Shown here piece after piece: positions 1 through 13,605 of a stretch of 64,000 nucleotides of DNA. Position numbers and translations under genes: made by a program. Each line of letters starts with the position of its first letter. The stretch's first letter is position 1. The notes under the pieces are model-generated. The model did no database searches, had not been told where the DNA came from, and saw only the letters and a program-made list of their open reading frames with translations. The stretch lies in the NCBI GenBank assembly GCA_048884965.1, contig JBHLQH010000007.1:93996-157995 (forward strand), written 5' to 3'. This DNA comes from Candidatus Thorarchaeota archaeon. GTDB lineage: Archaea > Asgardarchaeota > Thorarchaeia > Thorarchaeales > Thorarchaeaceae.

Positions 1-952
1 CTAGTCCAGGAGCAATCTCATCTAACACATCATGTTGTAATACAGATAATACACTCTCTGATGAGATTGAGTCTAGCATTCTCTTTCGTACTAGAACGAT
101 TGGTCTTTTCCAAGAAATGAGTAGCTTGCGTTCAGCTTCAGATAAGATGAAGTTCCTTTCCAGAGTTTCCAAATCTCTTACCATTATCGCAAATGGTCTT
201 TGGAGTCTTTGCTTCCTTTGCCTTAGCTTTGTGATTGGATCAACACTGGACGTGATTGTTACTAGATGAGTTCCTGAAATCCCTTGGACTGCAAGCACTT
301 CCCCTTGCTTGAGATATTCAGCTGAAGTCAAGATAGGATTAGGTGTGACTACATTGTTTCCTTTTCCATCCCTCAAATGATATGTAGGACCACATATCGC
401 ACAGGCTGTAGTTTGAGCATGATATCGTCTATCCATGGGATTTGTATAACCTGTATTACATGTATCACATAATGGAAAATCCTTCATTGTAGTATTCGGT
501 CTGTCATATGGAAGATCTGTAATAGTTGAGAACCGAGGTCCACATGCAGCACAAGAAGTGAATGGGTAATCCTTCCATCGAGATGATTGACTAGAAAGAT
601 CATCCTCACAACACTCACACATTGCAATATCAGGAGGTATAACCGGCTCTGACTCTTCGCTTTTCGTGATAGATGATTTCTCGATGACGAAATCATCATA
701 CTGTCCTTGGGTATCCTCCCAATCCAACTTAAACGAGTCAATACGTGCAATTGATGGAGGATCAGTCTTCAGGATATCAAGAAACTCTTGGATAGCTTCT
801 CTTTTTCCTTCAACAACAATTCGCACACCCGCATCACCTAGGTTTAGGACATACCCTGTGAGAGAGAATTCCTTTGCGATTCTATATACAAAGGGCCTGA
901 ATCCTACTCCTTGGACTATACCATTGATCTGAATTGTAGCTCGTATATTCAA
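1..952 (-). CDS. hypF: Hydrogenase maturation carbamoyltransferase HypF (N-terminal part; runs off the window edge)
   Basis: Not in the ORF track. Manual translation from TTG at 952 gives MNIRATIQINGIVQGVGFRPFVYRIA (acylphosphatase-like domain), then zinc fingers including FPLCDTCNTGYTNPMDRRYHAQ and KGIGG. Confidence 0.93.
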   Translation of the reverse strand, partial: MNIRATIQINGIVQGVGFRPFVYRIAKEFSLTGYVLNLGDAGVRIVVEGKREAIQEFLDILKTDPPSIARIDSFKLDWEDTQGQYDDFVIEKSSITKSEESEPVIPPDIAMCECCEDDLSSQSSRWKDYPFTSCAACGPRFSTITDLPYDRPNTTMKDFPLCDTCNTGYTNPMDRRYHAQTTACAICGPTYHLRDGKGNNVVTPNPILTSAEYLKQGEVLAVQGISGTHLVTITSSVDPITKLRQRKQRLQRPFAIMVRDLETLERNFILSEAERKLLISWKRPIVLVRKRMLDSISSESVLSVLQHDVLDEIAPGL

Positions 953-1055
953 CCGGAAGGAACCTCTATATCTGGCATAATCTGTCAGAGATATTAATCC
1001 AGTGAAGTGGCAATTTCCCTTTATACATGTATTACAAGAATTACAAACTTTGTAG

Positions 1056-1508
1056 GTGCTCTTAAAGCTCTCTAAGCACTATAATATGATTGAAGTGCGG
1101 TCGACATCGGATAGGACGGGACCTATGTTCATTGAACCTGAAACAACTCCCTCCATACTAGCCAATATTCCCGAGTGCCTGAGAAGAGTTCTCAAAGAAA
1201 CCTCTGAAGCAAGCACGAAAAAGAAAAGAGCTACATTAATCTCCAGTAATAGCTTGGCAAACAGATTTATTCTGGAACGATGGGGGATTCGTCCCTCACA
1301 AAGAAGACGGTTCAAGAATCTATTTGCATCAGTGCGAAAGCAATGTAGGAACATCTTTCAACATCTACTATCCAGGGGGAGACTGGAATGGAATATCGGC
1401 ACAACTAGATTCGTGTATGGAGTTTACAAATTCGATGAGATTCGTGGAAACCTGATCTTGGGCTTTGTTGACGTTCCGCCTGAAGAGGAGTGGACTCTTC
1501 CTATCTAA
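1056..1508 (+). CDS. Hypothetical basic protein (start may be a later ATG)
   Basis: 150-aa ORF divergent from hypF, K/R-rich centre, flanked on both sides by TGTATTACA arrays. No family recognised. Confidence 0.7.
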   Translation: MLLKLSKHYNMIEVRSTSDRTGPMFIEPETTPSILANIPECLRRVLKETSEASTKKKRATLISSNSLANRFILERWGIRPSQRRRFKNLFASVRKQCRNIFQHLLSRGRLEWNIGTTRFVYGVYKFDEIRGNLILGFVDVPPEEEWTLPI

Positions 1509-1696
1509 TGAAACACACGTATTATCTGTATTACAATAGCAATAGTGAACCTTAAGAGATAGCAGATTCTACTTGTATACAATGTTGTATCCGCTCAAAC
1601 AACAATTAGAAACGTTTGTTAGACCACTCCTAGAGCAGCAAATTTCAATGTTTCTGACGATTTCAAGAAATCTTCCTAATCCAATGAGGTGCTGAA

Positions 1697-2248
1697 TTGA
1701 ACGAAAGAAAACCCGAAACGCCGAATCAGGAAATTAGATCTGCAGCACAAAAGGCAAGACGAGCTCTTCGCGAACCCATGTTGAAAATTCTATTGGAGAG
1801 GTCCCTTCTTACCGATATACAGATGGAAACTCTACTAATCGATCTTGCGATAGAAGATCAAGTAGGAGATCATATCCCTTATGAAGACAAAGCCAGCATT
1901 CGCAGAAAATCAACAAGTAAATCGTCAGGTGTTTCTCGAGGCGCATTCAACCGAAGTCTAAGTCAGGCTCGTCGGAATGTCACACGGTGCCTCTATACCA
2001 TGTTACTATTAGCATATCTGGGACTATTTGACTATACTATATTTCGTCCATTTGAAGAATTATCCTCCAAGATTGGCGGGTACCAGAATATCCGAGAAGT
2101 ACTTTCAGGTAGAGAAAATCTAACTACCGAGGATTTAGAAAGTTACAGAGCGGCAGAGCAGACAATAATGGAAGCACTTGAAGAATTGGCTTCACCTCTT
2201 ATCCTTAAGTCAGAACTCTCTCGAAAGAAGCAGAACACTGATGAATAA
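1697..2248 (+). CDS. Hypothetical protein with putative HTH (sigma-70 region 4 / Tfx-like)
   Basis: 183 aa. GAGGTG RBS upstream. The segment LTDIQMETL...GVSRGAFNRSLSQARRNV resembles an HTH recognition helix. Confidence 0.7.
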   Translation: MNERKPETPNQEIRSAAQKARRALREPMLKILLERSLLTDIQMETLLIDLAIEDQVGDHIPYEDKASIRRKSTSKSSGVSRGAFNRSLSQARRNVTRCLYTMLLLAYLGLFDYTIFRPFEELSSKIGGYQNIREVLSGRENLTTEDLESYRAAEQTIMEALEELASPLILKSELSRKKQNTDE

Positions 2249-2267
2249 TACTTGTAATACAAGTATT
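2247..2267. promoter_or_regulatory. Perfect 21-bp palindrome built on the TGTAWTACA box
   Basis: AATACTTGTA-A-TACAAGTATT, overlapping the stop codon of the 1697-2248 gene. Confidence 0.7.
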
Positions 2268-2578
2268 CTATTAGAAAAAACGGCACGAATGTGTCGTACT
2301 CATAGGCACGGGGAACTGGACAAAGACTAGGATCCAAGCCGAATCGAATCGTCGCCCTATCTTCTGGAGGTTTATTGCTATGAGGAGATAGAGATAGAAC
2401 CGAAGACTCATTTCAGTTATATTCGATACCAATCTCTGTATAGTCGTATTCCTAAGATACGACACACTCATACTTTTCAGTACAACAATGATACATAGTT
2501 CTAATCCTAGAACGAGCTGTTTTCAGATGATAAAGTGCGCAAAATCAATAATATATACATGTAATACAAGCAATACAA

Positions 2579-3883
2579 TTGAGGAAGAAGTCTTATTCCT
2601 CCTTGGATGGATATTTGTCCAAATCAAAGAGTCTTGTGATCATATTGGATGAGGAAAGTCCCTTTGAACGGATAATGAAAGCTAGTAAGAAGCACATTCA
2701 AAATTCTGAGAAAGAAGAGAACGTTCAAGCAATCACCAGTGCAATTGGCGAAAGACGCATGAGAGATCTTTTGGATAGTCTCGGAAAAACAGAAAGCTCG
2801 TTTGGATGGCCTACTGCAGTTGAATACTTGATAGAATCATCAAACAAAGAATATCCAGTTCCTGTAGGATATGAAACTTCGAGCAAACCTCTTGAGTCTC
2901 TGAAATTCAGGGAAGTGATATTCGATCTCTTCGATTGTCCTGGAATGGAACCAGTTTGTCTGGCTACGAATGCTCTACTAGAGGAGCTTTCGAACTCTGA
3001 TTCATATATCTCAGCCAAATCAAAGTTCAGGGAACTTATCCACACTGCCACTGGCGAAAGTTTGGAAAATGGTGACACTCTTTTCTTCGAAACCGAGTTT
3101 CCCTCTACACTCTACTCAGATCATGAAATATTGAAAAAGGTAGAAGCATCTCAACTGAATGCCATCAAAGAAGTTAACCTTTCGTTTCAAGATGAGAGAA
3201 TTCATCTTCGGCCTCTCTGGTACTTGGAGCATAGTAGGAAGGCCTTAGCAGAACTTGGAATTCAGGATTCTTCGATTGACCCTGAATTATTCGCTATTGT
3301 AATATCTGTATTACAAGTACCGCTTGAAATCAAGCAGCAAATCAAACAGTCATTAGGTGCTACATCTATCATGAACGAACCTGTGCAGCCTATGAATCCA
3401 GAATACCAGTATCTGTTGGAATCTATCATCAATTGCGATGTTGAAAATCTAAGGAAACTTGGAAGTCGCCATGCATTTCCGACTTTTAGCTATCTTTTGA
3501 AGACATATGCTGACAGATATAGATCATCAGAGAGTAGTACAGATTATCGGAACCTCCTATTGGCAATACGGGATCACATTTCTATCAGATGGAATGACTC
3601 TATTATTGCTATTGCAGACCTAACTCAGATTTCGGACAATCGAATAACTACAGATGCGATTAGTGCACTTGGAAACTTCTATCATGAGTCAGCAGCATCT
3701 ACATTAACAGAGATATTCTGTAAATCAACAGACAAGAGCAATCGCCGCTTGATATTGAAAACCATTGCTCATCTTGCAACAAGATGCCCGGAAACCAAGG
3801 AATCGGTTCGCCATGCACTCTCACAAGATTGCATGAACGATGGAGAACTTCGAAAGTTCTATGGGAAGACTTGGAAGATATGA
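2579..3883 (+). CDS. Hypothetical protein with C-terminal HEAT-like repeats
   Basis: 434-aa ORF. C-terminal DNRITTDAISALGNFYHESAASTLTEIF matches a HEAT/PBS-lyase pattern. Confidence 0.75.
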   Translation: MRKKSYSSLDGYLSKSKSLVIILDEESPFERIMKASKKHIQNSEKEENVQAITSAIGERRMRDLLDSLGKTESSFGWPTAVEYLIESSNKEYPVPVGYETSSKPLESLKFREVIFDLFDCPGMEPVCLATNALLEELSNSDSYISAKSKFRELIHTATGESLENGDTLFFETEFPSTLYSDHEILKKVEASQLNAIKEVNLSFQDERIHLRPLWYLEHSRKALAELGIQDSSIDPELFAIVISVLQVPLEIKQQIKQSLGATSIMNEPVQPMNPEYQYLLESIINCDVENLRKLGSRHAFPTFSYLLKTYADRYRSSESSTDYRNLLLAIRDHISIRWNDSIIAIADLTQISDNRITTDAISALGNFYHESAASTLTEIFCKSTDKSNRRLILKTIAHLATRCPETKESVRHALSQDCMNDGELRKFYGKTWKI

Positions 3884-3953
3884 TACTATACATATAATAC
3901 TTGTAATACAACCACTCGACAAACATAAATCAGGAGTCGAATTCGCACAGTAC

Positions 3954-5351
3954 ATGAATAGTCTACAGGCTGGCAAGACCGCTGATATTGATCCTTTCTT
4001 CAATCCGAAACGAGTCGCCTTGGTAGGAGCCTCTTCTGATTATAGGAAATTGGGGAATTCTATACTAATGAATCTCCTAGCATCAGAAATTGAAATCTAC
4101 CCAATTAGTAGGTCTAGCGATTATATTCTTGGAGCCAAAGTCTATCCAAGCCTGGAAGACTTGCCTGTTCCAGTAGATCTTGCAATAATAGTTGTAGCTG
4201 CTAAATATTGCTCGAGTCTAATGACCGAAGTGAAGAAAGCTGGAGCGAGTCATGCGGTTGTAATCTCAGGAGGATTCAGCGAAACAGGACCTGAAGGACT
4301 TGAGCTAGAGCAGGAACTTGTTTCTGCAGCAAACAAAGCTGATGTCAGAATCATTGGACCAAATTGCGTAGGAGTATCAAACAGTAGACTATTCAACGGG
4401 ACCTTTACCATGATGCCAGAACGCGGCAATATCGCACTACTATCCCAAAGTGGGGCACTAGGTGGAATGATTATCTATACTACTCGCGCCAAGAGGATTG
4501 GAGTAAGCAAGTTCGCAAGTATCGGCAATGCTGCTGACGTTGGATTTGTTGAGGTGCTAGATTATTTCCGGGAAGATATACGTACTAAAGTGATAGCTGT
4601 CTATGTAGAAGGTGTGGACGACGGAAGAGGATTCTTTGAGTCCCTTAGATATGCCGCAAAAGCGAAACCTACTGTTGTTCTCAAAGGTGGGCAGAGCGAG
4701 GCTGGAAGTAAAGCAACACAGAGCCATACTGGATCCCTAGCAGGATCTAGTAAGATATTCGATGGAATGGTAAAGCAAGCAGGTTGTGTGTCTGCTCCCA
4801 CCCTTGACTCACTTCTTGAGATTTGCAAGCTTTTCGATTACCAGCCACTTCCTAAGGGGCGTAATATCGGTATTATCAGTAATACAGGTGGCGCGGGAGT
4901 GTTAGCCACTGATGCAGCCTCGAGCCTAGGATTGAATATCCCCTCTCTTGGCCATGAAACAACACATGAGCTCCGGCAAGTTCTTTCTCCCATGGCATCT
5001 GTCAATAATCCCATTGATGTAGTAGCATCCGGTGGAAGGCGGGAGTATCGTGTAGCAACTGAGCTCCTTCTCAAAGATCCTTCCGTGGATATGCTTCTAG
5101 TAGTCTGTGCAGTTCCTACTTTCGCAGGGATGACCCAAACAGAACATGCTGCAGGAACTCTCGAAGGAGTTCGATCTGCTGGAACTGAGAAACCTGTAGT
5201 TGGAGTATGGCTATCGGCGGATGTTGGAAAACCTGGGAAGGATCTTCTTGAGATGAATCGAATTCCATGTTACGATGATCCTGCATTGGCAGCTCTTTGC
5301 ATGTCTAAAACTGCAGAGTATGCTTACTACTTAGATCGCAACAAATGGTGA
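3954..5351 (+). CDS. acdA: Acyl-CoA synthetase (ADP-forming), alpha subunit
   Basis: FFNPKRVALVGAS CoA-binding motif, RIIGPNCVG, SQSGALG, and phospho-His motif SHTGSLAG. Start moved to ATG 3954 after an AGGAG RBS. Confidence 0.9.
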   Translation: MNSLQAGKTADIDPFFNPKRVALVGASSDYRKLGNSILMNLLASEIEIYPISRSSDYILGAKVYPSLEDLPVPVDLAIIVVAAKYCSSLMTEVKKAGASHAVVISGGFSETGPEGLELEQELVSAANKADVRIIGPNCVGVSNSRLFNGTFTMMPERGNIALLSQSGALGGMIIYTTRAKRIGVSKFASIGNAADVGFVEVLDYFREDIRTKVIAVYVEGVDDGRGFFESLRYAAKAKPTVVLKGGQSEAGSKATQSHTGSLAGSSKIFDGMVKQAGCVSAPTLDSLLEICKLFDYQPLPKGRNIGIISNTGGAGVLATDAASSLGLNIPSLGHETTHELRQVLSPMASVNNPIDVVASGGRREYRVATELLLKDPSVDMLLVVCAVPTFAGMTQTEHAAGTLEGVRSAGTEKPVVGVWLSADVGKPGKDLLEMNRIPCYDDPALAALCMSKTAEYAYYLDRNKW

Positions 5352-5375
5352 GATGTATTATTCGTATTACAGTTA

Positions 5376-5684
5376 TCAATTAAGGAACTCATGTGCGATT
5401 GACGGGAACTCATCCACCAAGGCATCTCTAAGCTTCTTTTCAACCCATAAACTCAGATTGATAGCCTTCTCATTTCTGACTGCTTGAAGACAAGATCTCA
5501 GTTCAGTAGTTACACTAAACGACATTATAGGACTCTTTCTTTCCTTATTTGGAACTGCAACTGGAGCTGAGTCTTCTTGTGTCGATACAACCCTTGTTGC
5601 TGTTGAGGCCGCAGAACTAACTGTAGTCTTTTCTTCTTCATCACGTCGTTCTTCTTCTTTCCGGTATTTTCCTAGTAGGCTCAT
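5376..5684 (-). CDS. Small protein: basic/acidic N-terminus, Ser/Thr/Ala-rich linker, C-terminal ribbon-helix-helix (putative centromere-binding protein)
   Basis: IMSFSV (strand), TELRSCLQAVRNEK (helix), AIN turn, LSLWVEKKLRDAL (helix) fits the RHH pattern. The ATG overlaps the upstream stop (TAATG) and has a GGAGGTG RBS. Confidence 0.75.
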   Translation of the reverse strand: MSLLGKYRKEEERRDEEEKTTVSSAASTATRVVSTQEDSAPVAVPNKERKSPIMSFSVTTELRSCLQAVRNEKAINLSLWVEKKLRDALVDEFPSIAHEFLN

Positions 5685-6661
5685 TAGCCCACCTCCTTCA
5701 GGATTGATTCGTAAGCACTTGCCACAAGCGAGGCAATCTCAACATCAACATCAGGCTTGCCCGCTCTCTTGAGATTCTCTGCTGCAACTTGTTGGCATCC
5801 TCTTGCTAGCATTCGAATGTCACGAGGATTGCCTTTTGCAGCACCATTGAGTACAGCAATCGACTCTTCGTGGAATGGATAGATACTGAACTCATCAGGG
5901 TCGAATACGTCGATTTGTCCTTTCGCATAGGCAATTCTCCTACCGATGAATTCCTTCGCTTTCGCGTCGTTCAAAGGCGGGACATCCAATGGTTCTGTCC
6001 TATCTGCAATCTGCGGCAAGAATGATAGCATTGCGTTCCAGTACAAGACCGTACCAGACATTACCAGTGTTACAATGGGCTCATCAAGAGCTGTGCCACC
6101 ATATTCATCCTTCATCTCTTCAGTTGGAAGATCTGCAAGGAAACGTAGCTTGTGAAATGCAGCTTCCTGATTGTCAGCAACATCTTCAATGAACAGCGCA
6201 GTACGACTTTTTTCCTCGATGTATCTTCTCACACTCTCTTGAGCTACAGCATCAATGATTTGACTAGATTCCCATGACCTTCGATACTTGATACGCAGCG
6301 AATCTGCAATAGCAGCGCTCATCTGTTTCTCATAGAGCCCGGTCATACCGACATAGCCGGTGATGAACTTGTTCCCTCTTCTATCCGCAAGCGTGGGGAG
6401 ATCTCTAAGTGCAAGTAGCATCAATGTGCTTTTTCCGCTACCTACTGGACCTCTAAGAAAGATGTGTCTTTCATTCGTAATTATGAGATCCACGATGGAA
6501 TCTAAGAAGTCCGGATGCTCAACATAGAGTCTGCTATCAGGCATTTTGAAACCTCTGAAGGGGCTAAAGCGAGCTCCAATCTTCTCTTCCCAAGCTCTCA
6601 GGGTTTCCTTTCGCGTGTTGAAATGGCGTATCAATGCGGATTCGTGGATGGCTATGGTCAT
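5684..6661 (-). CDS. ExeA/MshM-like AAA+ ATPase
   Basis: N-terminal SPF..P..LY..H, Walker A GPVGSGKST, Walker B-like LFIEDVA, sensor-1 LVMSGT, Arg finger IADR, PPLN..EFIGRRI and sensor-2 KGNPRDI. Start set at ATG 6661 (GAGGT RBS). Confidence 0.85.
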   Translation of the reverse strand: MTIAIHESALIRHFNTRKETLRAWEEKIGARFSPFRGFKMPDSRLYVEHPDFLDSIVDLIITNERHIFLRGPVGSGKSTLMLLALRDLPTLADRRGNKFITGYVGMTGLYEKQMSAAIADSLRIKYRRSWESSQIIDAVAQESVRRYIEEKSRTALFIEDVADNQEAAFHKLRFLADLPTEEMKDEYGGTALDEPIVTLVMSGTVLYWNAMLSFLPQIADRTEPLDVPPLNDAKAKEFIGRRIAYAKGQIDVFDPDEFSIYPFHEESIAVLNGAAKGNPRDIRMLARGCQQVAAENLKRAGKPDVDVEIASLVASAYESILKEVG

Positions 6662-6671
6662 CGTCAAACCT

Positions 6672-6698
6672 CGTATCACATGTACTTATTGTAATACA
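6672..6698. promoter_or_regulatory. Triple 9-bp box directly upstream of the ATPase-RHH operon (putative autoregulatory operator)
   Basis: CGTATCACA TGTACTTAT TGTAATACA abuts the RBS of the 5684-6661 gene. Confidence 0.65.
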
Positions 6699-6839
6699 AT
6701 TATCAATTGCCTTTCACTGATAAAGGTTGTGAGAAATATATCGGACTGGCGCCATACATTTTCATACACAACCTTTTTGAACTGAAAACATTCGTGTTGG
6801 TATCGGACACTTTGTCCTAATTTCAGGAGAACCCCAATT

Positions 6840-7118
6840 ATGGATGTCAGCCGGATTCAAAGAATCTTGACCTCGCTAATGATACTCAGCTTCCTAATCT
6901 TTGGCCTATTAGCTGGAGTTATACTGATCACTGATGCACCTGTGGATAGTTCAACAGCATCACTTCCCTTCGCATTTCTTTTCATCTCAGCCATGTCTCT
7001 CATCACAACAGGACAAATCAACGAGAATCCAAAAAGAGTGGAAAAACACCTCCGAGATTGGCTACTTTTGTGTGTCATAGCTGTGGTTATCAGTGCACTG
7101 GCCTTCGGGTTTGCATAA
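6840..7118 (+). CDS. Small membrane protein (about 3 TM helices)
   Basis: 92 aa, three hydrophobic segments, AGGAG RBS. Confidence 0.75.
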   Translation: MDVSRIQRILTSLMILSFLIFGLLAGVILITDAPVDSSTASLPFAFLFISAMSLITTGQINENPKRVEKHLRDWLLLCVIAVVISALAFGFA

Positions 7119-7204
7119 TACGCATCAAAACAGTTTTAGGAACTCATTGAGTGTCTGTGCTACTGCATATCTTTGCAATAAGTTTCTCTGAAGATGTGAC
7201 CAAC

Positions 7205-7834
7205 ATGAGTAAAATTCTTGCAGGTACCAAGACTACCCGAATGGAGTTATTACGGCTCAAGAACAGAATGCGTTTAGCTGAACGTGGTCACAATCTACTG
7301 AAGGAGAAACGTGATTCCCTCATTATGGAGTTCTTCAACGCTATTTCTGAGATTAAGGAAGCAAGGCAATCCGTTGAAGGTACTCTATCTGAAGCTTTCT
7401 CAAGCCTTACCCAAGCAAAAATGGTAATGGGACCTGCTCGAGTCATTGAGTTTGCATACGCGAGCAAGGTACAGACTGACATTAGCATAGCAACACGGTC
7501 GATGATGGGTGTGAGAGTGCCTGTGATGAGCGTTGAGCAACACGTCCCAGAGCTTCCTTATTCGCTTCCCGATTCTAGCGCTCGCTTGGATACCATGAGC
7601 ATCAAATTCAGAGAAGCACTAAAATCACTTACTCGGCTTGCTGAAATCGAGTCCACTGTCAAAAGACTAGCTCTTGAAATCGAACGAACCAAGAGAAGAG
7701 TATCCGCTCTTGAAACAATCGTGATTCCACGTCTTGATGCGTCTGCTCGATTTGTTAGACTTGCGCTTGAGGAACGAGAACGAGAAGACTTCATACGCTT
7801 GAAGATGATTCGTGATCGAATGGATGTATCCTAG
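7205..7834 (+). CDS. atpD: A/V-type ATP synthase subunit D
   Basis: TRMELLRLKNRMRLAERGHNLLKEKRDSL and EIERTKRRVSALE...LEEREREDFIRLK signatures. Confidence 0.95.
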   Translation: MSKILAGTKTTRMELLRLKNRMRLAERGHNLLKEKRDSLIMEFFNAISEIKEARQSVEGTLSEAFSSLTQAKMVMGPARVIEFAYASKVQTDISIATRSMMGVRVPVMSVEQHVPELPYSLPDSSARLDTMSIKFREALKSLTRLAEIESTVKRLALEIERTKRRVSALETIVIPRLDASARFVRLALEEREREDFIRLKMIRDRMDVS

Positions 7835-7907
7835 CATTTCAATCTCAGAGGGCATATTGTTTTCCTTACGGCGGATCATAGACCTAGAGCCTCTTCGATT
7901 GAAATGC
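7834..7907. terminator. Long inverted repeat between convergent atpD and nac
   Basis: GCATTTCAATC (7834-7844) and GATTGAAATGC (7897-7907) are perfect 11-bp arms, with further inner pairing. Confidence 0.5.
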
Positions 7908-7942
7908 CAGAGAGTTGTGATACTTGTAATACAATCTCTACT

Positions 7943-8335
7943 CTAACGTTTCAGTTTGAGTATGGCGGCAGCAAGATCTCCATCAGTTTCCTTGAGAGCC
8001 TCAGTAGCCTCTTCTATACTAACGCCTGTCTGCGCAGCAACGAGAGCAGCATCTTCGACAGGAATCTCGATCTCCTTTGGTCCGGGATAGTTGTCTGCAC
8101 CATCTGCAGCTGCTTCTACAGCGGCAGTCAACCCACGTTCAGTCTTGGCGCCAGATACTTGGTATGACTCACTCCCTGCCTGCTTGATCACGCCTACCTG
8201 CGGGTTCGATATGAGCCACTCCTTGTCCTGGAAGCGGATGATCACTTCCTTGACGCCCTTCAGGTCGTTCTGCTCTATACCCATCTTCTTCATCATTCTG
8301 GCCATTTGCTTTGGAGACATACCTCGGAATCCCAT
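7943..8335 (-). CDS. nac: Nascent polypeptide-associated complex protein (archaeal NAC)
   Basis: PKQMARMMKKMGI N-terminus and C-terminal UBA-like EDAALVAAQTGVSIEEATEALKETDGDLAAAILKL. Confidence 0.95.
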   Translation of the reverse strand: MGFRGMSPKQMARMMKKMGIEQNDLKGVKEVIIRFQDKEWLISNPQVGVIKQAGSESYQVSGAKTERGLTAAVEAAADGADNYPGPKEIEIPVEDAALVAAQTGVSIEEATEALKETDGDLAAAILKLKR

Positions 8336-8388
8336 GTTGTTTCTTCCTCACCAGTCCTAGCTTGAATAGTGGATAAAACGATTATGCT

Positions 8389-9228
8389 TCAGACGTTGTG
8401 CTGGGAAGGTCGTAGCTCGATGTCGAAGACATAATGTACGATGCCTGGGGAGTAATGTTTCACCTCTCGGTAGGTAGGTCTCGCTTGGAAGTCGTGGACC
8501 TGAGCTATTGTACTAATTGTATTACAATATGCATTAGCCTCGGCCGCAGGAATCGCAGTATGGAGATGGACCCATCCACCCTTGGGAGAGAGGGTCTCTA
8601 AAGCAGCGGGAAGGAAATCGATGGTATCGTGGAGGTACCCCATCACGACCCGATCAGCGATACCGACTGGATGCACTTCCCTACAATCACCAAGAACTGC
8701 TCTCATTCTATCCTGAACATTGTTGAGCATGATGTTCTCCTGAAGGAACCTGAAAGCTTCGGGATTGATCTCGATGGCGGTGACATGGGCATTGGTCCTA
8801 GCAGCGATATGTAGCCCGAACTGTCCTACACATGCGAACATATCAACGACGTGCTCATGCGCTGCTACTCTCTTGGGAAGAGATATCCGCTCTCCACGGT
8901 TCCCTCTTGAGAAGGTAAGGCGAAGGGGATCGACACGAAACCTCACCCCATTCTCTGTGTGGGTCGTTAGGGTATCCAAATCCCCTGCGACAAGAGCGAA
9001 GGATGGGAGCCGGGTTTCTCCCTCGGTGGGTCCCGTTCGAACAGCGACGGACCTGATCCTGGAATCATAGTCCAAGGTCAGCTTACCTATCCTTGACGCA
9101 AGCTTTGGGTCATCGAAGGGGAGGGTAAGGAGAGCGACATGGCCGACGACATCATATCCTCTAGGAAGGATCAAGTTCTCTGGGATGCTATCTGCAAGGT
9201 TTGACTTGAGATATTCTCGGTATCGCAT
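8389..9228 (-). CDS. Trm5/Taw2 (Met-10+) family SAM-dependent tRNA modification enzyme
   Basis: TTHTENGVRFRVD, FSRGNRGER, VVDMFACVGQFG, AIEINPEAF..L.ENI.LN and ADRVVMGY. Confidence 0.88.
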   Translation of the reverse strand: MRYREYLKSNLADSIPENLILPRGYDVVGHVALLTLPFDDPKLASRIGKLTLDYDSRIRSVAVRTGPTEGETRLPSFALVAGDLDTLTTHTENGVRFRVDPLRLTFSRGNRGERISLPKRVAAHEHVVDMFACVGQFGLHIAARTNAHVTAIEINPEAFRFLQENIMLNNVQDRMRAVLGDCREVHPVGIADRVVMGYLHDTIDFLPAALETLSPKGGWVHLHTAIPAAEANAYCNTISTIAQVHDFQARPTYREVKHYSPGIVHYVFDIELRPSQHNV

Positions 9229-9459
9229 GACAGAGGCAGTACAGACTCCTTACCTAGAAAATCCTTCGTTTCTAGGACAACATATCCTAAGAGGTCACTT
9301 TTTTCTTGAACATATTGTAATACAAGTAATAGAGCAAGATCCGGGCCAATGCACCCCGCTCCGCATCTCCAGAGCATCCTTGGAATTTGGAACACGTGTT
9401 CTAAACTCATAGAAGGTCACATAGAAAATGGGGGGCTCTGAAGTAATATGCTATGACTA

Positions 9460-10671
9460 CTAGCAGTAGATGTTACTTGGAGCAGTACCTTCACTACTTC
9501 GCTCTTTGACCTTCTGAACTGCCTTGCGGAAGTGATCATGCGTCACACAGGTCTGCCCATCTCTGATAGCGAACATACCCGCCTCTGTGCAGATGGCCTT
9601 GATATCCGCACCAGTCAACTTCATCCTGTCTGATACTAATGTATCAAAGTTCACAGTGTCCTGGATGTTCATGCCGCGAGTGTGGATCTTGAATATCTCC
9701 TTCTGGCTTGTTGAGTCCGGGAATGGGAACTCGATGATACGATCGAATCGACCAGGTCTTAGAAGTGCAGGGTCTAGAATGTCTGGTCGGTTAGTAGCCC
9801 CAATAATCGCAACCTGCCCGCGTGTCTCGAATCCGTCTAGCTCGCTCAAGAGCTGCATGAGGGTTCGCTGGACCTCTCGGTCTCCAGATGTCGCGATATC
9901 AAGTCGATGGGAACCGACAGCATCAAGCTCGTCAACGAAGACGATAGCCGGTGCTTTCTCCTTGGCCATCATGAAGATCTCCCTGACCAATCGTGCGCCT
10001 TCACCAATGAACTTCTGAACTAGCTCTGAACCGATGACTCGAATGAAGGTGGCCTTAGTCTCATGAGCCACTGCTCGTGCGCTCAAAGTCTTACCCGTAC
10101 CTGGAGGTCCAGTCAAAAGCACACCCTTTGGTGGCTCGATGCCTACCTGCTCGAAGAGCTCGGGACTGTTAAGGGGTAGTTCCACGGTCTCTCGAATCTC
10201 CCGGAGCTGATCATGTAAACCGCCGATGTCTGAGTAGCTGACTTGTGGTGCTTCCTCTATCTCCATGGCGCGAATCATTGGGTCTCGCGATGGAGGTAGC
10301 TCCTGCGTGACTGCAAAAGAGCGTTGATTGAGTGCTACTCGGGCTCCAGGCTGTAGCTTATCCCGTGGTATGCTTGATGAAACATGAGTGACGAAGGTTG
10401 GCCCAGTAGATGACTTGACTATTGCGCGCCCATCTTCCAAGATCTCAGAAATCGTCGCTGTGATGAGAGGACTCTGACGGAGCTTCTCAAGCTCGGTTCG
10501 CAGTGTCTGGGTTTCCTTCTCTAGTCGGCCTCGTTCTGCCTGAAGGATCTGGCGCTCTGTTTCCAGCGCTCGTAGCCTGCGTTCCAGATGGCGAGTATAG
10601 CTCTGCGAGTAGGTCTCGTCTTCGCTTTCGACTTCGCCTTCCTTCTTTGATTCGGTTCCACCAGGCATCAT
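9460..10671 (-). CDS. pan: Proteasome-activating nucleotidase
   Basis: N-terminal coiled coil and OB fold, GPPGTGKT, VFVDELDA, ATNRPDILDPALLRPGRFDR, and C-terminal HbYX motif (IYC). Confidence 0.96.
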   Translation of the reverse strand: MMPGGTESKKEGEVESEDETYSQSYTRHLERRLRALETERQILQAERGRLEKETQTLRTELEKLRQSPLITATISEILEDGRAIVKSSTGPTFVTHVSSSIPRDKLQPGARVALNQRSFAVTQELPPSRDPMIRAMEIEEAPQVSYSDIGGLHDQLREIRETVELPLNSPELFEQVGIEPPKGVLLTGPPGTGKTLSARAVAHETKATFIRVIGSELVQKFIGEGARLVREIFMMAKEKAPAIVFVDELDAVGSHRLDIATSGDREVQRTLMQLLSELDGFETRGQVAIIGATNRPDILDPALLRPGRFDRIIEFPFPDSTSQKEIFKIHTRGMNIQDTVNFDTLVSDRMKLTGADIKAICTEAGMFAIRDGQTCVTHDHFRKAVQKVKERSSEGTAPSNIYC

Positions 10672-11324
10672 TAGGCACCTCAGCTTCTAATCCGTTGTTA
10701 GTTACTTAAGCATATCTTTAATGGTCATTCTTAGATTGTACTATGTAAGTAAATAATACTTGTAATACAATGGCGTACGTTCAGAATCATCAAAATCTCT
10801 ATTGTATCTCCATACATTTGGCTTTCCGAAATCGATTATTCTCGGACATGTTCAGTTTCTCCTCTCTGAATCAGTAAAGACGCCATAGAGATACAGATTC
10901 TTGAAAGTAACCCTTCAACGTTTATGTAAAATGCAGATGCATCTAACGCCATTCTAACAGATCAATATAGTTACTTAGAGTCACACTGAAACTTTCCTAC
11001 GTGCGAGAAGCAGAGATTTCGCTTATACCTTTGATCTTAGTCAAGCAGCCCTAACCGCTATTTACCATTATATTATCTTTGAATATCAAATACTATTTCA
11101 TGAAACGGAGTCAGATTCTATCGTGGTTTGTTCTTATTTTGCTATTTAAACCACTTCGACAATTGACTTGCGTTTTCTCGCTATTTTGCTAGTTGTGTAC
11201 ACTTTCAGCTCGTCTTTCTGACAAGGGAAAATCCGCGAAACTAACAGCTCGAAACATGTACTATGATTCAGAAAAACCGGATGAAAACCTCCGGAATTGA
11301 CATTTGAAAGGAGAAAGAACGACA

Positions 11325-11438
11325 ATGATTTCAAATCTATTGATACCCCCATTCCGTGATGAACCAGAACAAGAACCAGAGCCTTTTATCTTCACTATTC
11401 CTCCTGGTGGATCCAATCCCCCGGATGAGCCATTCTAA
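11325..11438 (+). CDS. Putative 37-aa Pro/acidic-rich small peptide
   Basis: Below the ORF-track cutoff: MISNLLIPPFRDEPEQEPEPFIFTIPPGGSNPPDEPF. AAGGAG RBS upstream and a perfect hairpin downstream. Confidence 0.5.
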   Translation: MISNLLIPPFRDEPEQEPEPFIFTIPPGGSNPPDEPF

Positions 11439-11453
11439 ACAAGAATCCCTGTG

Positions 11454-11483
11454 TAGAATTCTGGAAATTTCTCCAGAATTCTA
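11454..11483. terminator. Perfect 12-bp hairpin / palindromic site
   Basis: TAGAATTCTGGA-AATTTC-TCCAGAATTCTA between the small ORF and the 683-aa gene. Confidence 0.55.
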
Positions 11484-11553
11484 TCCCCACTTATTTTCAT
11501 ATCCTACCATCGTTTGAAACGATAACTCCATTTAGGTGCATTCAATTCTATAG

Positions 11554-13605
11554 ATGGGTGCTACATTGAACCATCTACGAAACATTAGGAAGATTTGGCT
11601 ACCTGATGGATCATGTCAAAGTGGAGATTTGGCTTATGATGATGGAAGAATAGTAGTATCATTGGATGGACTTGATGGTATATTTAGCCAAGAAGAAAAT
11701 CTGATCCTAGAGATGGATACGATTATTGTTATCGGTGATAATGGTATTTCAAGAGAAACATCTCTGAGAAGACCAATTCGTGTGAAGCTAGCTCCAAAAT
11801 TCTTAGGGAAGAAAACCTATTCCAAGGAGGCAAAAGAGGATGAGTTCGACATATATCCAGAGTCAAGCTATCGGTTTTATGGCAAGCTTGTTCGAGGAAA
11901 ACAGATAGCGATTTTTCTTGTGCAGGAAATCCTTGATGATAACCGCCTATGGCTGACGATATTCGATCCACAAACATATGAAATTCACCAAAGTCACCCA
12001 ATCCACTTGTATGAGTTTGATGTAATACGATTGAAGACATTCTACGAACTGTACTCCGAATACACCTCAGCTTTCAAACCAAAGAACCCTCAGAAAGCTA
12101 AATCAGAGATTTGTAATCTCATAGATATCTCTCAGATATCTTGGTCTGAAATTACAAACATGACACAAGGAATAATCCCATCAACATTTCTGATGACACA
12201 CAATGCCAAGGGTCTATTTGGTCAACTATTTCCAATACAAATCTTTCAAGATGAAGTTAGGGATCAACTCCTTGCCTTTCTTACTTGGGTCGCAAAAGAT
12301 TTACTTCCTAAGGATGACATTGTAGAATTCATTGAACGCACGATGGCCGTACCTTTATTCAGGGATTTGTATATTGCACATCTTCGCTTCGTATTGAATG
12401 ACATAACTCCTCCAAACTATATTGATATTATTAATGACTCAATTGAGAGATTCACGACCAGTTCGAAATCAGTCGAAGAAAGAGTTCGGTGGAATCCAGA
12501 TTTTATCTTGAGAGATCGAATTGAGAGTCTGTCACCAAACAACCAAGATGAAATAACCAGCATTATCAGATCGCTAAATAGATCGAACACCATTCACACA
12601 ACATTGCCTATACAAAAAGAAAAGGGGATGGACTATGAAGCAACACGCAAGCGTTTGATAATGTATGATATGTATATACGTCTAAGAACACATGTGAGAA
12701 CTAGGGCTCTTGGTCTCAGAGAGCTCATATATATCGGATCTGCATATAGATGGCCTACGCTACATACAGCATCATCAATCCGATTAGGAGCTTCTGATTC
12801 TCCTGCTCCATATATGCAATCCATGATAATGCCAGTTTCAGCAGCAGAACAAGTAAAAAGAGTTCTACCAAAAGTTTTGGATATTGAATGGGCTTCACAT
12901 TCGATAAACATGCAATTGTATAATCAATCAGAAAGCAAATGGACAATTAATCCAAATAGAATTAGCGAGTCTTTTTCCAGAAAGAAATCACTAAAAGATT
13001 TGATGGATGAATTTGGCGTTTGGAAGGGCGATACCACTTATTTTCCAGATGAAAAAGAGGTTAGAATTCTAGATATGACAAGCAATATGTTCTATCTGTC
13101 TGACTTGGAGTCAGAAACAGGACGAGAGTATTGGCAGACTGACGAAAATGAGAGCAAGGCAATTCTTTCTAAATTGAGAAACAATGGCATAATCGACATC
13201 TCATATTGGTACGATTTCAAGCAATCACTATCACCAGTTTATGTTTCACTTAGAGGGCCCGAGAACATAGTATGTTCAATTACATACAGTCTCTTGAAAG
13301 ATGTTCCCACATCATTGGTGCGAATTACTGACAGGGGCAAAGTGGCCTTGATAGCTTCCAGAGTACCCCCCGAATACAAATCGGTATTCTTTGATACTAT
13401 TCAAGAAAACTCAAAAAACACCGATTTGGTGATGCAATGCTCAGAAGTATCAGGCCATCGAAACTATACAACAGATTTGTATCAACGTCTCAGATGCAGT
13501 GACGATACTTGGAACTCCGATATTACAGGACTTCTTTCACAAATAAGGTCATTACCGAAGACCCTCTTGGATGAGATTACAGCTGAAATTAGCCAATCTA
13601 GATAG
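11554..13605 (+). CDS. Large hypothetical protein, possible C-terminal winged helix
   Basis: 683-aa ORF, visibly AT-richer than its neighbours. ESKAILSKLRNNGIIDISY resembles a wHTH helix plus wing. Confidence 0.8.
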   Translation: MGATLNHLRNIRKIWLPDGSCQSGDLAYDDGRIVVSLDGLDGIFSQEENLILEMDTIIVIGDNGISRETSLRRPIRVKLAPKFLGKKTYSKEAKEDEFDIYPESSYRFYGKLVRGKQIAIFLVQEILDDNRLWLTIFDPQTYEIHQSHPIHLYEFDVIRLKTFYELYSEYTSAFKPKNPQKAKSEICNLIDISQISWSEITNMTQGIIPSTFLMTHNAKGLFGQLFPIQIFQDEVRDQLLAFLTWVAKDLLPKDDIVEFIERTMAVPLFRDLYIAHLRFVLNDITPPNYIDIINDSIERFTTSSKSVEERVRWNPDFILRDRIESLSPNNQDEITSIIRSLNRSNTIHTTLPIQKEKGMDYEATRKRLIMYDMYIRLRTHVRTRALGLRELIYIGSAYRWPTLHTASSIRLGASDSPAPYMQSMIMPVSAAEQVKRVLPKVLDIEWASHSINMQLYNQSESKWTINPNRISESFSRKKSLKDLMDEFGVWKGDTTYFPDEKEVRILDMTSNMFYLSDLESETGREYWQTDENESKAILSKLRNNGIIDISYWYDFKQSLSPVYVSLRGPENIVCSITYSLLKDVPTSLVRITDRGKVALIASRVPPEYKSVFFDTIQENSKNTDLVMQCSEVSGHRNYTTDLYQRLRCSDDTWNSDITGLLSQIRSLPKTLLDEITAEISQSR

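Follow-up and report, generated by a model that had tools for sequence, protein, structure and literature searches.

What might a dense field of short palindromes around a two-gene operon do in the chromosome of an Asgard archaeon? The question is raised by a locus of a Candidatus Thorarchaeota archaeon that lies in a stretch of 64,000 nucleotides (hereafter the window; C7:93,996-157,995, in an assembly of 4,089,206 bp and 99 contigs). A preliminary description of this stretch had proposed a new type of chromosome-partition system, made up of an ATPase, a small ribbon-helix-helix (RHH) protein and centromere-like TGTAWTACA boxes. To our knowledge, the organisation and separation of Asgard chromosomes are unknown, and the sole archaeal system that has been studied, SegAB, uses a bacterial-type ParA ATPase. 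The locus looks like an undescribed origin-handling or centromere-like system, and no description of its ATPase/small-protein/array module was found in the literature searched. Beyond what had been described before, it has a pair of origin recognition boxes (ORBs) at the end of the field, a co-conserved 183-aa helix-turn-helix (HTH)-like protein, and sites that share their identity with the aCcr1 box of Sulfolobales.

A recount gave the 13 exact copies of TGTAWTACA previously reported between positions 36 and 10769, and likewise the phased arrays on both sides of the operon (Table 1). The whole window holds 15 copies, against 0.29 expected and a maximum of 2 in dinucleotide-preserving shuffles. 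In the complete assembly the exact 9-mer occurs 21 times, with 17 copies on contig C7 and 14 inside C7:93,355-104,756 (window -640 to 10769). Its 7-bp core, GTAWTAC, is found 230 times genome-wide, and 21 of these copies fall in one 16-kb stretch representing 0.39% of the genome. Because palindromes with the same base composition number 401-1152 copies genome-wide, GTAWTAC is avoided outside the field. The field itself extends left past the window start, covering window -4704 to 10778 (C7:89,291-104,773), or about 15.5 kb, with 21 sites.

Site anatomy was determined from an alignment of 318 cores from 18 family-level loci. Every aligned core is accompanied by weaker copies (G-T-A-W-T-A-c) at -9 and +9, so that a full site consists of three phased 9-bp palindromic units (nGTAWTACn), 27 bp in total. 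A 27-bp matrix, trained only on genera other than that of the window, was run over the whole genome. All 13 matches of at least 20 bits were in C7:88-107 kb, as were 15 of the 16 of at least 18 bits and 20 of the 26 of at least 14 bits. By exact words and by matrix alike, there is a single genome-wide density peak at the operon, as the preliminary description had anticipated. Gaps between the 21 sites range from 307 to 1445 bp with a coefficient of variation of 0.39, and none of 20,000 random placements was equally even. Of the 21 sites, approximately 8 precede a gene start by 10-90 nt, 4 are found between the ends of convergent genes and 9 are intragenic. With 13 of 21 sites intragenic or between convergent ends, promoter control does not fit.

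The field is conserved among relatives (families and genomes are given here by f and G numbers). Plain counting ranked GTAWTAC first or nearly first among 7-mers in each of the 17 family-f1 loci, from at least 16 genera, so that homologous operons do carry flanking repeats of the same kind. Each of these 12-20 kb loci contains 11-26 copies, where the genome-wide rates of four family genomes imply roughly 0.5-2 per 20 kb. Sites recur at orthologous positions, at about -40, +1300, +1760, +2750, +3330, +4080, +5150, +5650, +6240, +7310, +8110, +8750 and +9550 from the ATPase start. Every family-f1 locus has a core 7-58 nt upstream of this start, and the orthologue of the array just beyond the small gene is found at approximately +1260 to +1410 in all f1 loci that hold the position. 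Within hypF, the codons for C-I-T read TGT ATT ACn in every genome compared while nearby synonymous positions vary. Elsewhere in the gene, the codons for CDT-CNT-GYT spell three phased units, and the hypF of G030 (family f7), which has no array, encodes CDYCMEEY there. Since the hypF codons are fixed amid varying synonymous positions, and the array-less hypF differs, the DNA word itself is under its own selection and has shaped the hypF protein sequence.

The protein-coding part of the locus is similarly constrained. The ATPase is 77-92% identical in 22 of 24 family genomes (at least 16 genera) and 68% identical at order level, a degree of conservation equal to or above that of the adjacent proteasome ATPase PAN. 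The gene pair was kept in 18 of 20 related loci, as found by tblastn. Identity of the small protein within the family is 46-72% by tblastn and 48-75% in alignment A1, in which an invariant N-terminal peptide (M-S-L-L-G-K-Y-R-K) is followed by a variable linker and a conserved C-terminal stretch of 55 residues.

Comparison with origin features, a check put forward with the preliminary description, revealed an oriC-like ORB pair adjoining the field. Its two boxes (TTCCAGTGGAAAT-N3-GGGG), at C7:89,732 and 89,858, 4.1 kb left of the window, are inverted and enclose an AT-rich stretch of approximately 105 bp, and the palindrome GAACACGTGTTC occurs three times alongside. The element spans window -4359 to -4070 (C7:89,637-89,926; L041:11637-11926). 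An ORB pair with an AT-rich core is the canonical layout of an archaeal oriC, and the element is a predicted origin on this basis. The nearest GTAWTAC site is within 50 bp of the ORB/palindrome cluster, and a single site lies on its far side. In at least 10 other genera, the same cluster is found +10.8 to +11.6 kb from the ATPase start, and the array thins there. The two bona fide orc1/cdc6 genes of the genome are both on contig C7, 34 and 88 kb from the ATPase gene; in four other genera the corresponding distances are about 35 and 75 kb.

Several further observations concern origins. An additional ORB is located at C7:85,624. The palindrome GAACACGTGTTC adjoins ORBs in other Thorarchaeota genera and in G030 also, and is probably a second origin-associated protein-binding site. 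Tandem mini-ORB repeats (two copies of TTCCAGTGGAAAT and a partial one) at C7:12,044-12,064, about 100 bp upstream of the best-scoring orc1/cdc6 (C7:10,823-11,938), probably mark a second origin on contig C7. A 105-aa gene without a Pfam match (L041:11320-11637, window -4676 to -4359) directly adjoins the ORB pair and has homologues near ORBs in G030 (118 aa, between two ORBs), in G025 and in an f3 locus; its product is a candidate origin-associated small protein. As a possible origin, the 880-bp gap at 10672-11553 was rejected, since it contains neither an ORB nor a clear AT-rich core and is not conserved in relatives. GC skew peaks at the field on the 158-kb contig, but fluctuations of similar size occur elsewhere, and it was not used. 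GTAWTAC cores near the two orc1/cdc6 genes are without flanking units and look like chance occurrences.

The operon agrees in its layout with what had been proposed. ATPase and small-protein genes are coupled by a TAATG overlap, with GGAGGTG ahead of the overlap, and the three-part arrangement of NTPase, tailed small protein and phased repeats is real. The ATPase gene is single copy in the genome, and its start at 6661 (MTIAIHE...) is the same in relatives, in which the Walker A residues G74/G76/K77 and sensor-2 residues G277/R280/R283 are invariant. The AlphaFold model (pLDDT 88.7) had as its top solved structures Drosophila Cdc6, Pyrobaculum Cdc6, Aeropyrum ORC1/ORC2 and Sulfolobus Orc1 (VIA Z 18.2-19.2 over 251-270 residues), followed by Orc1 subunits, TnsC (Z 17.5) and MuB filaments (Z 17.3), with ClpA and NLR rows at about 15-16. 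Judged from the model, the ATPase carries an initiator-type AAA+ module. Two helices between strands 98-104 and 152-158 occupy the position of the initiator insert, which we infer to be present, and the modelled chain ends after the lid at 324 aa, without the C-terminal winged helix (Cdc6_C) and with no DNA-recognition domain of its own. The Orc1/Cdc6 models PF09079 (Cdc6_C) and TIGR02928 matched other loci in the genome and not the ATPase gene.

The preliminary description had called this protein an ExeA-like AAA+ ATPase. The AAA+ assignment holds, and the protein is not ParA-, actin- or tubulin-like. The likeness to ExeA falls short of describing it: the fold is nearest to Orc1/Cdc6, and the Pfam AAA_22 match reached 21.3 bits against a cut-off of 27, with AAA_16 and NB-ARC likewise below threshold. 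An exhaustive profile search with the ATPase returned about six full-length 50%-identity clusters at E <= 1e-72, which are its own family, and ten matches below 1e-30, four of them fragments. The next tier, at approximately 1e-25 to 1e-17, comprised fragments and proteins of about 300 aa, and long ExeA-type proteins appeared from about 1e-17 to 1e-16. ExeA accordingly ranks as a distant sequence neighbour of a protein whose modelled fold is ORC/Cdc6-TnsC/MuB-like. No type II secretion or pilus partner genes and no peptidoglycan-binding domain were found in window -6 to +16 kb.

For the small protein, a flexible tail, a strand-helix-helix arrangement and RHH-clan look-alikes are consistent with the earlier RHH assignment. 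The model has helices at 58-73 and 77-92 after an extended stretch. The ten best named Atlas look-alikes all belong to the RHH clan (RHH_1, RHH_3, RHH_10, Arc, HicB, ParG), and Atlas structure rows gave TM 0.54-0.70 over residues 44-102, with 6 of 10 being RHH-type or unnamed small proteins. Searches against Pfam, including its RHH families, and PDB sequences gave no match (one chance PDB row, E = 0.49), and Foldseek with the monomer model gave non-significant rows only (E >= 1.9), including Arc, Reg576 and StnY. Only Thorarchaeota-type hypothetical proteins were among the 120 matches listed from a large protein collection, and a tblastn search of phage records with the RHH-like domain was negative. 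These data suggest that the small protein likely has an RHH fold. A complex prediction for the ATPase with the small protein scored 0.00; it was run without controls and counts neither way. Public runs listed with the operon included no RNA run, and the DNA carriers were sediment metagenomes, among them two that may represent the source sample.

Homologues of the ATPase were found in 7 of 28 sampled Asgard families: f1 (54/59), f2, f3, f7, f19, f21 and f27. The query retrieved none in families such as f5 (0/26) and f9 (0/54). The distance to the best-scoring orc1/cdc6 is 3-4 kb in f3, f7, f19 and f21; in f2 and f27 an orc1/cdc6 gene is about 10 kb away. In one f3 genome the ATPase gene adjoins the gene for the PolD small subunit. 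G030 has ORB elements 0.9-1.7 kb ahead of its ATPase gene, and GTAWTAC cores lie in between, with sites 0.5-0.8 kb from ORBs. Cores occur upstream of the ATPase start at -41/-47 in f27, at -56 to -83 in f21 and at -120 in f7. Family f27 has a clear Thorarchaeota (Thor)-type tailed protein (MSLLQKYRK..., ...EFPDIA) and a dense array of its own, with nine GTAWTAC cores within 2.5 kb in addition to one at -41. A different small protein is encoded downstream of the ATPase in f21 and f3; 1-3 cores are found in f21, and only one-mismatch near-matches in f3. A third small-protein type is found in f7 and f19, together with GATATC arrays; one GTAWTAC core lies at about -120 in most f7 genomes, and there is none near the f19 operon. 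When the Thor small-protein profile was compared by hhalign with the small proteins encoded behind the ATPase gene in G030 and in one f3 genome, no relation was detected. Because the comparison links the profile to neither protein, the pair appears to be positional only outside f1, f2 and f27.

Two of these families deserve further description. The f27 arrays (L058:14130-16700 in G240; L059 in G204) consist of 9-10 cores, roughly 150-700 bp apart over 2.5 kb, directly downstream of the operon for the ATPase and tailed RHH protein; from the sequences, this dense GTAWTAC array appears independent of that in f1. At f7 and f19 loci (L054, L056, L060, L036), 3-4 GATATC palindromes, 12-20 nt apart, stand directly upstream of the ATPase start, and the downstream small protein, of 143-160 aa, has no detectable relation to that of Thorarchaeota. 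A swapped adaptor with a swapped site may be represented here.

A third gene, for the 183-aa HTH-like protein, accompanies that for the ATPase. It is present in 20 of 20 related loci, distant ones included, and within 1-4.5 kb of the ATPase gene in all seven families (f1, f2, f3, f7, f19, f21, f27). The protein has an invariant stretch, GVSRGAFNR.L.QA..N, and its homologues are named in some sources 'predicted DNA-binding protein (UPF0251 family)'. Members of the HTH-like family are also present in f12 and f13, two families in which this query did not retrieve the ATPase. One in-frame TAG was noted in the matches of several f3/f21 genomes, for the 183-aa homologue in G026, G037 and G047 and for the ATPase homologue in G066 and G081; the search may have run through an upstream stop, or the codon may be recoded.

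Among characterised systems, the closest in layout are partition loci. SegB is an RHH protein, and its full site, segS, is a triple repeat next to the segAB operon (PMC12139799). As in SegAB, the locus described here is an overlapping chromosomal operon of an NTPase gene followed by a gene for a small RHH-type site-specific DNA binder, predicted in our case (PMC12139799, PMC8682754). The preferred site is in both a triple tandem short repeat just upstream of the operon; there are additional, weaker sites at other places, and no more than a few percent of the chromosome separates the locus from an origin. However, full segS occurs once, 166 kb from oriC2, whereas about 21 full Thor sites form a 15-kb array that touches ORBs, and SegB has no detectable sequence relation to the Thor small protein. 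ParA/MinD-type genes do occur in the genome; they are uninformative about SegAB and were not used. The plasmid type Ib/II systems (ParF-ParG-parH, delta-omega, ParM-ParR-parC) also have an NTPase gene followed by that for a small protein with a flexible N-terminal tail, the Thor RHH domain being a prediction. Phased short repeats flank or precede these operons, and autoregulation through the repeats would be expected. In contrast to them, the Thor motor resembles neither ParA nor actin nor tubulin, the locus sits on the chromosome among housekeeping genes and includes a third conserved HTH-like gene, and the sites are dispersed over 15 kb instead of forming one block of about 100 bp. Bacterial ParABS shares a genome-unique palindrome cluster, confined to about 15 kb on one side of the origin, partly intragenic and around the system's own genes, but ParB is a sliding HTH CTPase and ParA a Walker ATPase, and neither family is part of the Thor system.

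The ATPase itself points to other systems. Orc1/Cdc6 proteins are the best structural matches for its AAA+ base and lid (Z 17-19, 228-270 residues), and the locus is at or near an ORB-type origin. Unlike them, the Thor ATPase is without a winged helix and without a TIGR02928/Cdc6_C match, and ExeA/AAA_22-type proteins come first in sequence profiles (E ~1e-16). DNA recognition would presumably be supplied by the separate small protein. MuB and TnsC have a similar fold (Z 16.8-17.5), are without sequence-specific DNA binding of their own, and assemble on DNA in an ATP-dependent manner governed by a partner's short peptide; here, however, there is no transposase and there are no transposon ends, and the locus is fixed and conserved on the chromosome.

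The site has a published counterpart. In Sulfolobales, the aCcr1 box is 9 bp long and reads A(T/G)G(A)TA(G)A(T/G)TACN, given also as AGTAATACN, AGTATTA or TGTATTAT; its reader is aCcr1, a small RHH protein (PMC9976878). The Thor nGTAWTACn has the core of this box, and aCcr1 boxes are often paired near a start codon (PMC9976878, PMC9976892). Since aCcr1 is an RHH reader of the same core, an RHH protein can read the array word; the same identity also raises the possibility of a regulon. As differences, aCcr1 is a 58-aa stand-alone repressor with genome-scattered targets, no ATPase partner and no array, whereas strong Thor sites are confined to the 15.5-kb field and 13 of 21 are not promoter-proximal. 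An hhalign comparison of A1 with SIRV2 gp21 (ORF59b) placed the strand and helices in RHH register (IMSFSV / IITFKI) at a probability of only 4.9%. The genome also has three stand-alone CopG/CdrS-like RHH genes (C16:1172-1471, C25:36439-36639, C21:24446-24586). Their products share LYPNRSE(A/V)IRIAIRDLL and are the nearest genome relatives of gp21, a viral aCcr1 homologue (best E = 0.0014).

Taken together, it is possible, and we propose it tentatively, that the locus is an origin-flanking nucleoprotein array of partition-cassette type that serves origin handling. A structural landing pad is favoured over gene control because many sites are intragenic or between convergent ends, their spacing is even, the word is depleted elsewhere and the layout is that of a cassette. 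The operon carries one site over its own promoter region and another at its 3' end, the triple 9-bp architecture matches the binding of tandem short palindromes by RHH proteins, and the fold neighbours of the ATPase are DNA-encircling or filament-forming AAA+ proteins. In the mechanism envisaged, dimers of the small protein would bind each 9-bp palindrome, three abreast per site, so repressing their own operon and coating the origin-proximal 15 kb. The tail peptide would touch the ATPase, which, like its structural neighbours, would oligomerise on duplex DNA in an ATP-dependent way. Repeated rounds of assembly, dependent on ATP, and of release, stimulated by the tail, could then keep the origin region together after its replication, place it or pull it apart. 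Such a role would be akin to that played by ParB-parS and ParA, or by SegB-segS and SegA, though the motor would be of another class. The 183-aa HTH-like protein would probably be a further subunit or a second DNA reader. A wider claim, which we regard as rather doubtful, is that Thorarchaeota and several other Asgard lineages segregate or position their origin region by a new class of partition machine, with an ORC/Cdc6-derived AAA+ motor or matrix, a tailed RHH adaptor and a 15-kb array beside oriC as centromere.

A number of points weigh against this proposal. Segregation, the identity of the site reader and the contact between tail and ATPase are parts of it that we infer, the RHH fold of the small protein is a lead from secondary structure and from language-model and structure look-alikes, and origin activity at the ORB element is predicted from sequence. 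The ATPase belongs to no known partition family, and its nearest relatives act in replication initiation and transposition targeting, for which reason adjacency to an origin fits replication control equally. Dense arrays were seen only in f1 and f27, with 1-3 sites elsewhere, and approximately 8 of 21 sites in the field are at operator-type positions. GTAWTAC also stays near the f7 and f21 operons, where the small partner is without detectable Thor homology and the HTH-like protein is conserved.

In view of how the ATPase folds and where the locus lies, replication control is a serious rival, albeit one that we consider somewhat unlikely. The ATPase would be an ORC/Cdc6 paralogue minus the winged helix, recruited by the small or the HTH-like protein, and would modulate initiation through helicase loading, origin sequestration or competition with Orc1/Cdc6. 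The top fold matches, Cdc6 and archaeal Orc1/Cdc6, are as would be expected in this case, as are the short distances to orc1/cdc6 in f3, f7, f19 and f21, the PolD neighbour in one f3 genome, the closeness of G030 sites to ORBs and a field that begins at the ORB/palindrome cluster. However, initiators and their regulators work within about 1 kb of an origin, and we know of no origin feature that is a one-sided array of 21 even sites over 15 kb. The ATPase gene is moreover missed by the two Orc1/Cdc6 models, and bacterial and Sulfolobus partition loci are origin-proximal too. A separate question is which protein reads the sites. Because the word persists in f7 and f21 without a detectably homologous small partner, the HTH-like protein could be the reader, alone or with the small protein, which would then be a mere autoregulator or adaptor of what would still be an origin-flank array. 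Its presence beside the ATPase in seven of seven families and its invariant putative recognition stretch agree with this. On the other side, a 7-bp palindrome with a repeat period of 9 bp is the kind of target that RHH dimers take (MetJ, Arc, omega, aCcr1) and does not suit HTH dimers, dense arrays occur only alongside the Thor-type tailed protein, and the HTH-like family is found in f12 and f13 as well. We regard this assignment as unlikely.

Control of the neighbourhood in step with the cell cycle by an aCcr1-like RHH repressor, either that of the operon or one of the three stand-alone proteins, with no structural role for the sites, is improbable in our view. It would account for the aCcr1-box unit and for the sites upstream of gene starts, and small RHH proteins closer to gp21 than that of the operon are available in the genome. 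Yet the 13 sites within genes or between convergent ends are maintained by selection on codons, and genes in the field are functionally unrelated (hypF, oxidoreductase, synthetase, V-ATPase D, NAC, Trm5, PAN). A cell-cycle regulon would be expected to be scattered over the genome, whereas strong sites are confined to one field, and the gp21 comparison of the operon's own protein was poor. Least credible by far is a remnant of a partition cassette from an integrated plasmid or virus. The layout does resemble plasmid type Ib/II loci, and archaeal mobile elements often carry RHH proteins and AAA+ ATPases, but the operon is single copy, highly identical across genera and kept in synteny with housekeeping genes. 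Near the operon there was no integrase, no tRNA target and no gene of a mobile element; the conserved neighbourhood contained no transposase and the phage collection no match.

The features of the window are collected in Table 1. The setting among housekeeping genes of an Asgard archaeon was correctly described before: the neighbours are hypF, an acyl-CoA synthetase-like gene (ADP-forming), V-ATPase subunit D, NAC, Trm5/TYW2 and PAN, and a 2-oxoacid:ferredoxin oxidoreductase pair lies left of the window. Within the field, a 434-aa protein (2579-3883) with a weak HEAT-repeat signal changes far more quickly in evolution than its neighbours (26-45% identity against 55-90%), and a conserved 150-aa ORF without a family match (1056-1508) lies near its gene. 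At 10672-13605, the 880-bp non-coding gap is followed by a 683-aa open reading frame (ORF) without a Pfam match and without a homologue in 20 related loci; this variable region coincides with the end of the site field.

Table 1. Genes, sites and arrays of the locus, in window coordinates
Feature	Position	Strand	Sequence	Context
AAA+ ATPase, 324-325 aa	5684-6661	-		ORC/Cdc6-like fold (model), without winged-helix domain
Tailed small protein, 102 aa	5376-5684	-	N-terminal peptide MSLLGKYRKEEE	Variable low-complexity linker; strand-helix-helix (RHH-like) domain at 48-102
HTH-like protein, 183 aa	1697-2248	+		UPF0251 / sigma-70 region 4-like; third gene accompanying ATPase
Operator-like triple 9-bp array	6672-6698		CGTATCACA / TGTACTTAT / TGTAATACA	11-37 nt upstream of ATPase ATG at 6661
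Two phased 9-bp units	5354-5371		TGTATTATT / CGTATTACA	Directly beyond stop of small gene
Site	27-53		Exact 9-mer 36-44	Within hypF coding sequence
Site	443-469		Exact 9-mer 452-460	Within hypF; CDT-CNT-GYT codons
Site	1019-1045		Exact 9-mer 1028-1036	20 nt upstream of conserved 150-aa ORF
Site	1518-1544		Exact 9-mer 1527-1535	Intergenic
Site	2244-2270		Exact 9-mer 2253-2261	Directly beyond stop of 183-aa gene
Site	2551-2577		Exact 9-mer 2560-2568	11 nt upstream of 434-aa HEAT-like gene
Site	3298-3324		Exact 9-mer 3307-3315	Within 434-aa gene
Site	3893-3919		Exact 9-mer 3902-3910	5' end of ADP-forming acyl-CoA synthetase-like gene
Site	4869-4895		AGTAATACA at 4878-4886, core exact	Within synthetase-like gene
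Site	7916-7942		Exact 9-mer 7925-7933	Between convergent V-ATPase D and NAC genes
Site	8509-8535		Exact 9-mer 8518-8526	Within Trm5/TYW2 gene
Site	9307-9333		Exact 9-mer 9316-9324	Intergenic, upstream of Trm5/TYW2 gene
Site, last of field	10752-10778		Exact 9-mer 10761-10769	About 90 nt upstream of PAN gene
Site field, part in window	1-10778			Left end of field is the oriC-like ORB pair at -4263 and -4137, beyond the window

The locus is a concrete, sequence-defined and highly conserved candidate for origin or chromosome handling in Asgard archaea. Its parts are small and soluble-looking, which makes binding, ATPase and structural work feasible without cultivation, and the array can be used as a computational marker of an origin region in Thorarchaeota genomes. 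Should origin handling prove to be its role, the locus would represent a new motor class for DNA partition, or a new layer of archaeal origin control, and would connect AAA+ proteins of the initiator type with the way chromosomes are organised in the closest lineage to eukaryotes.

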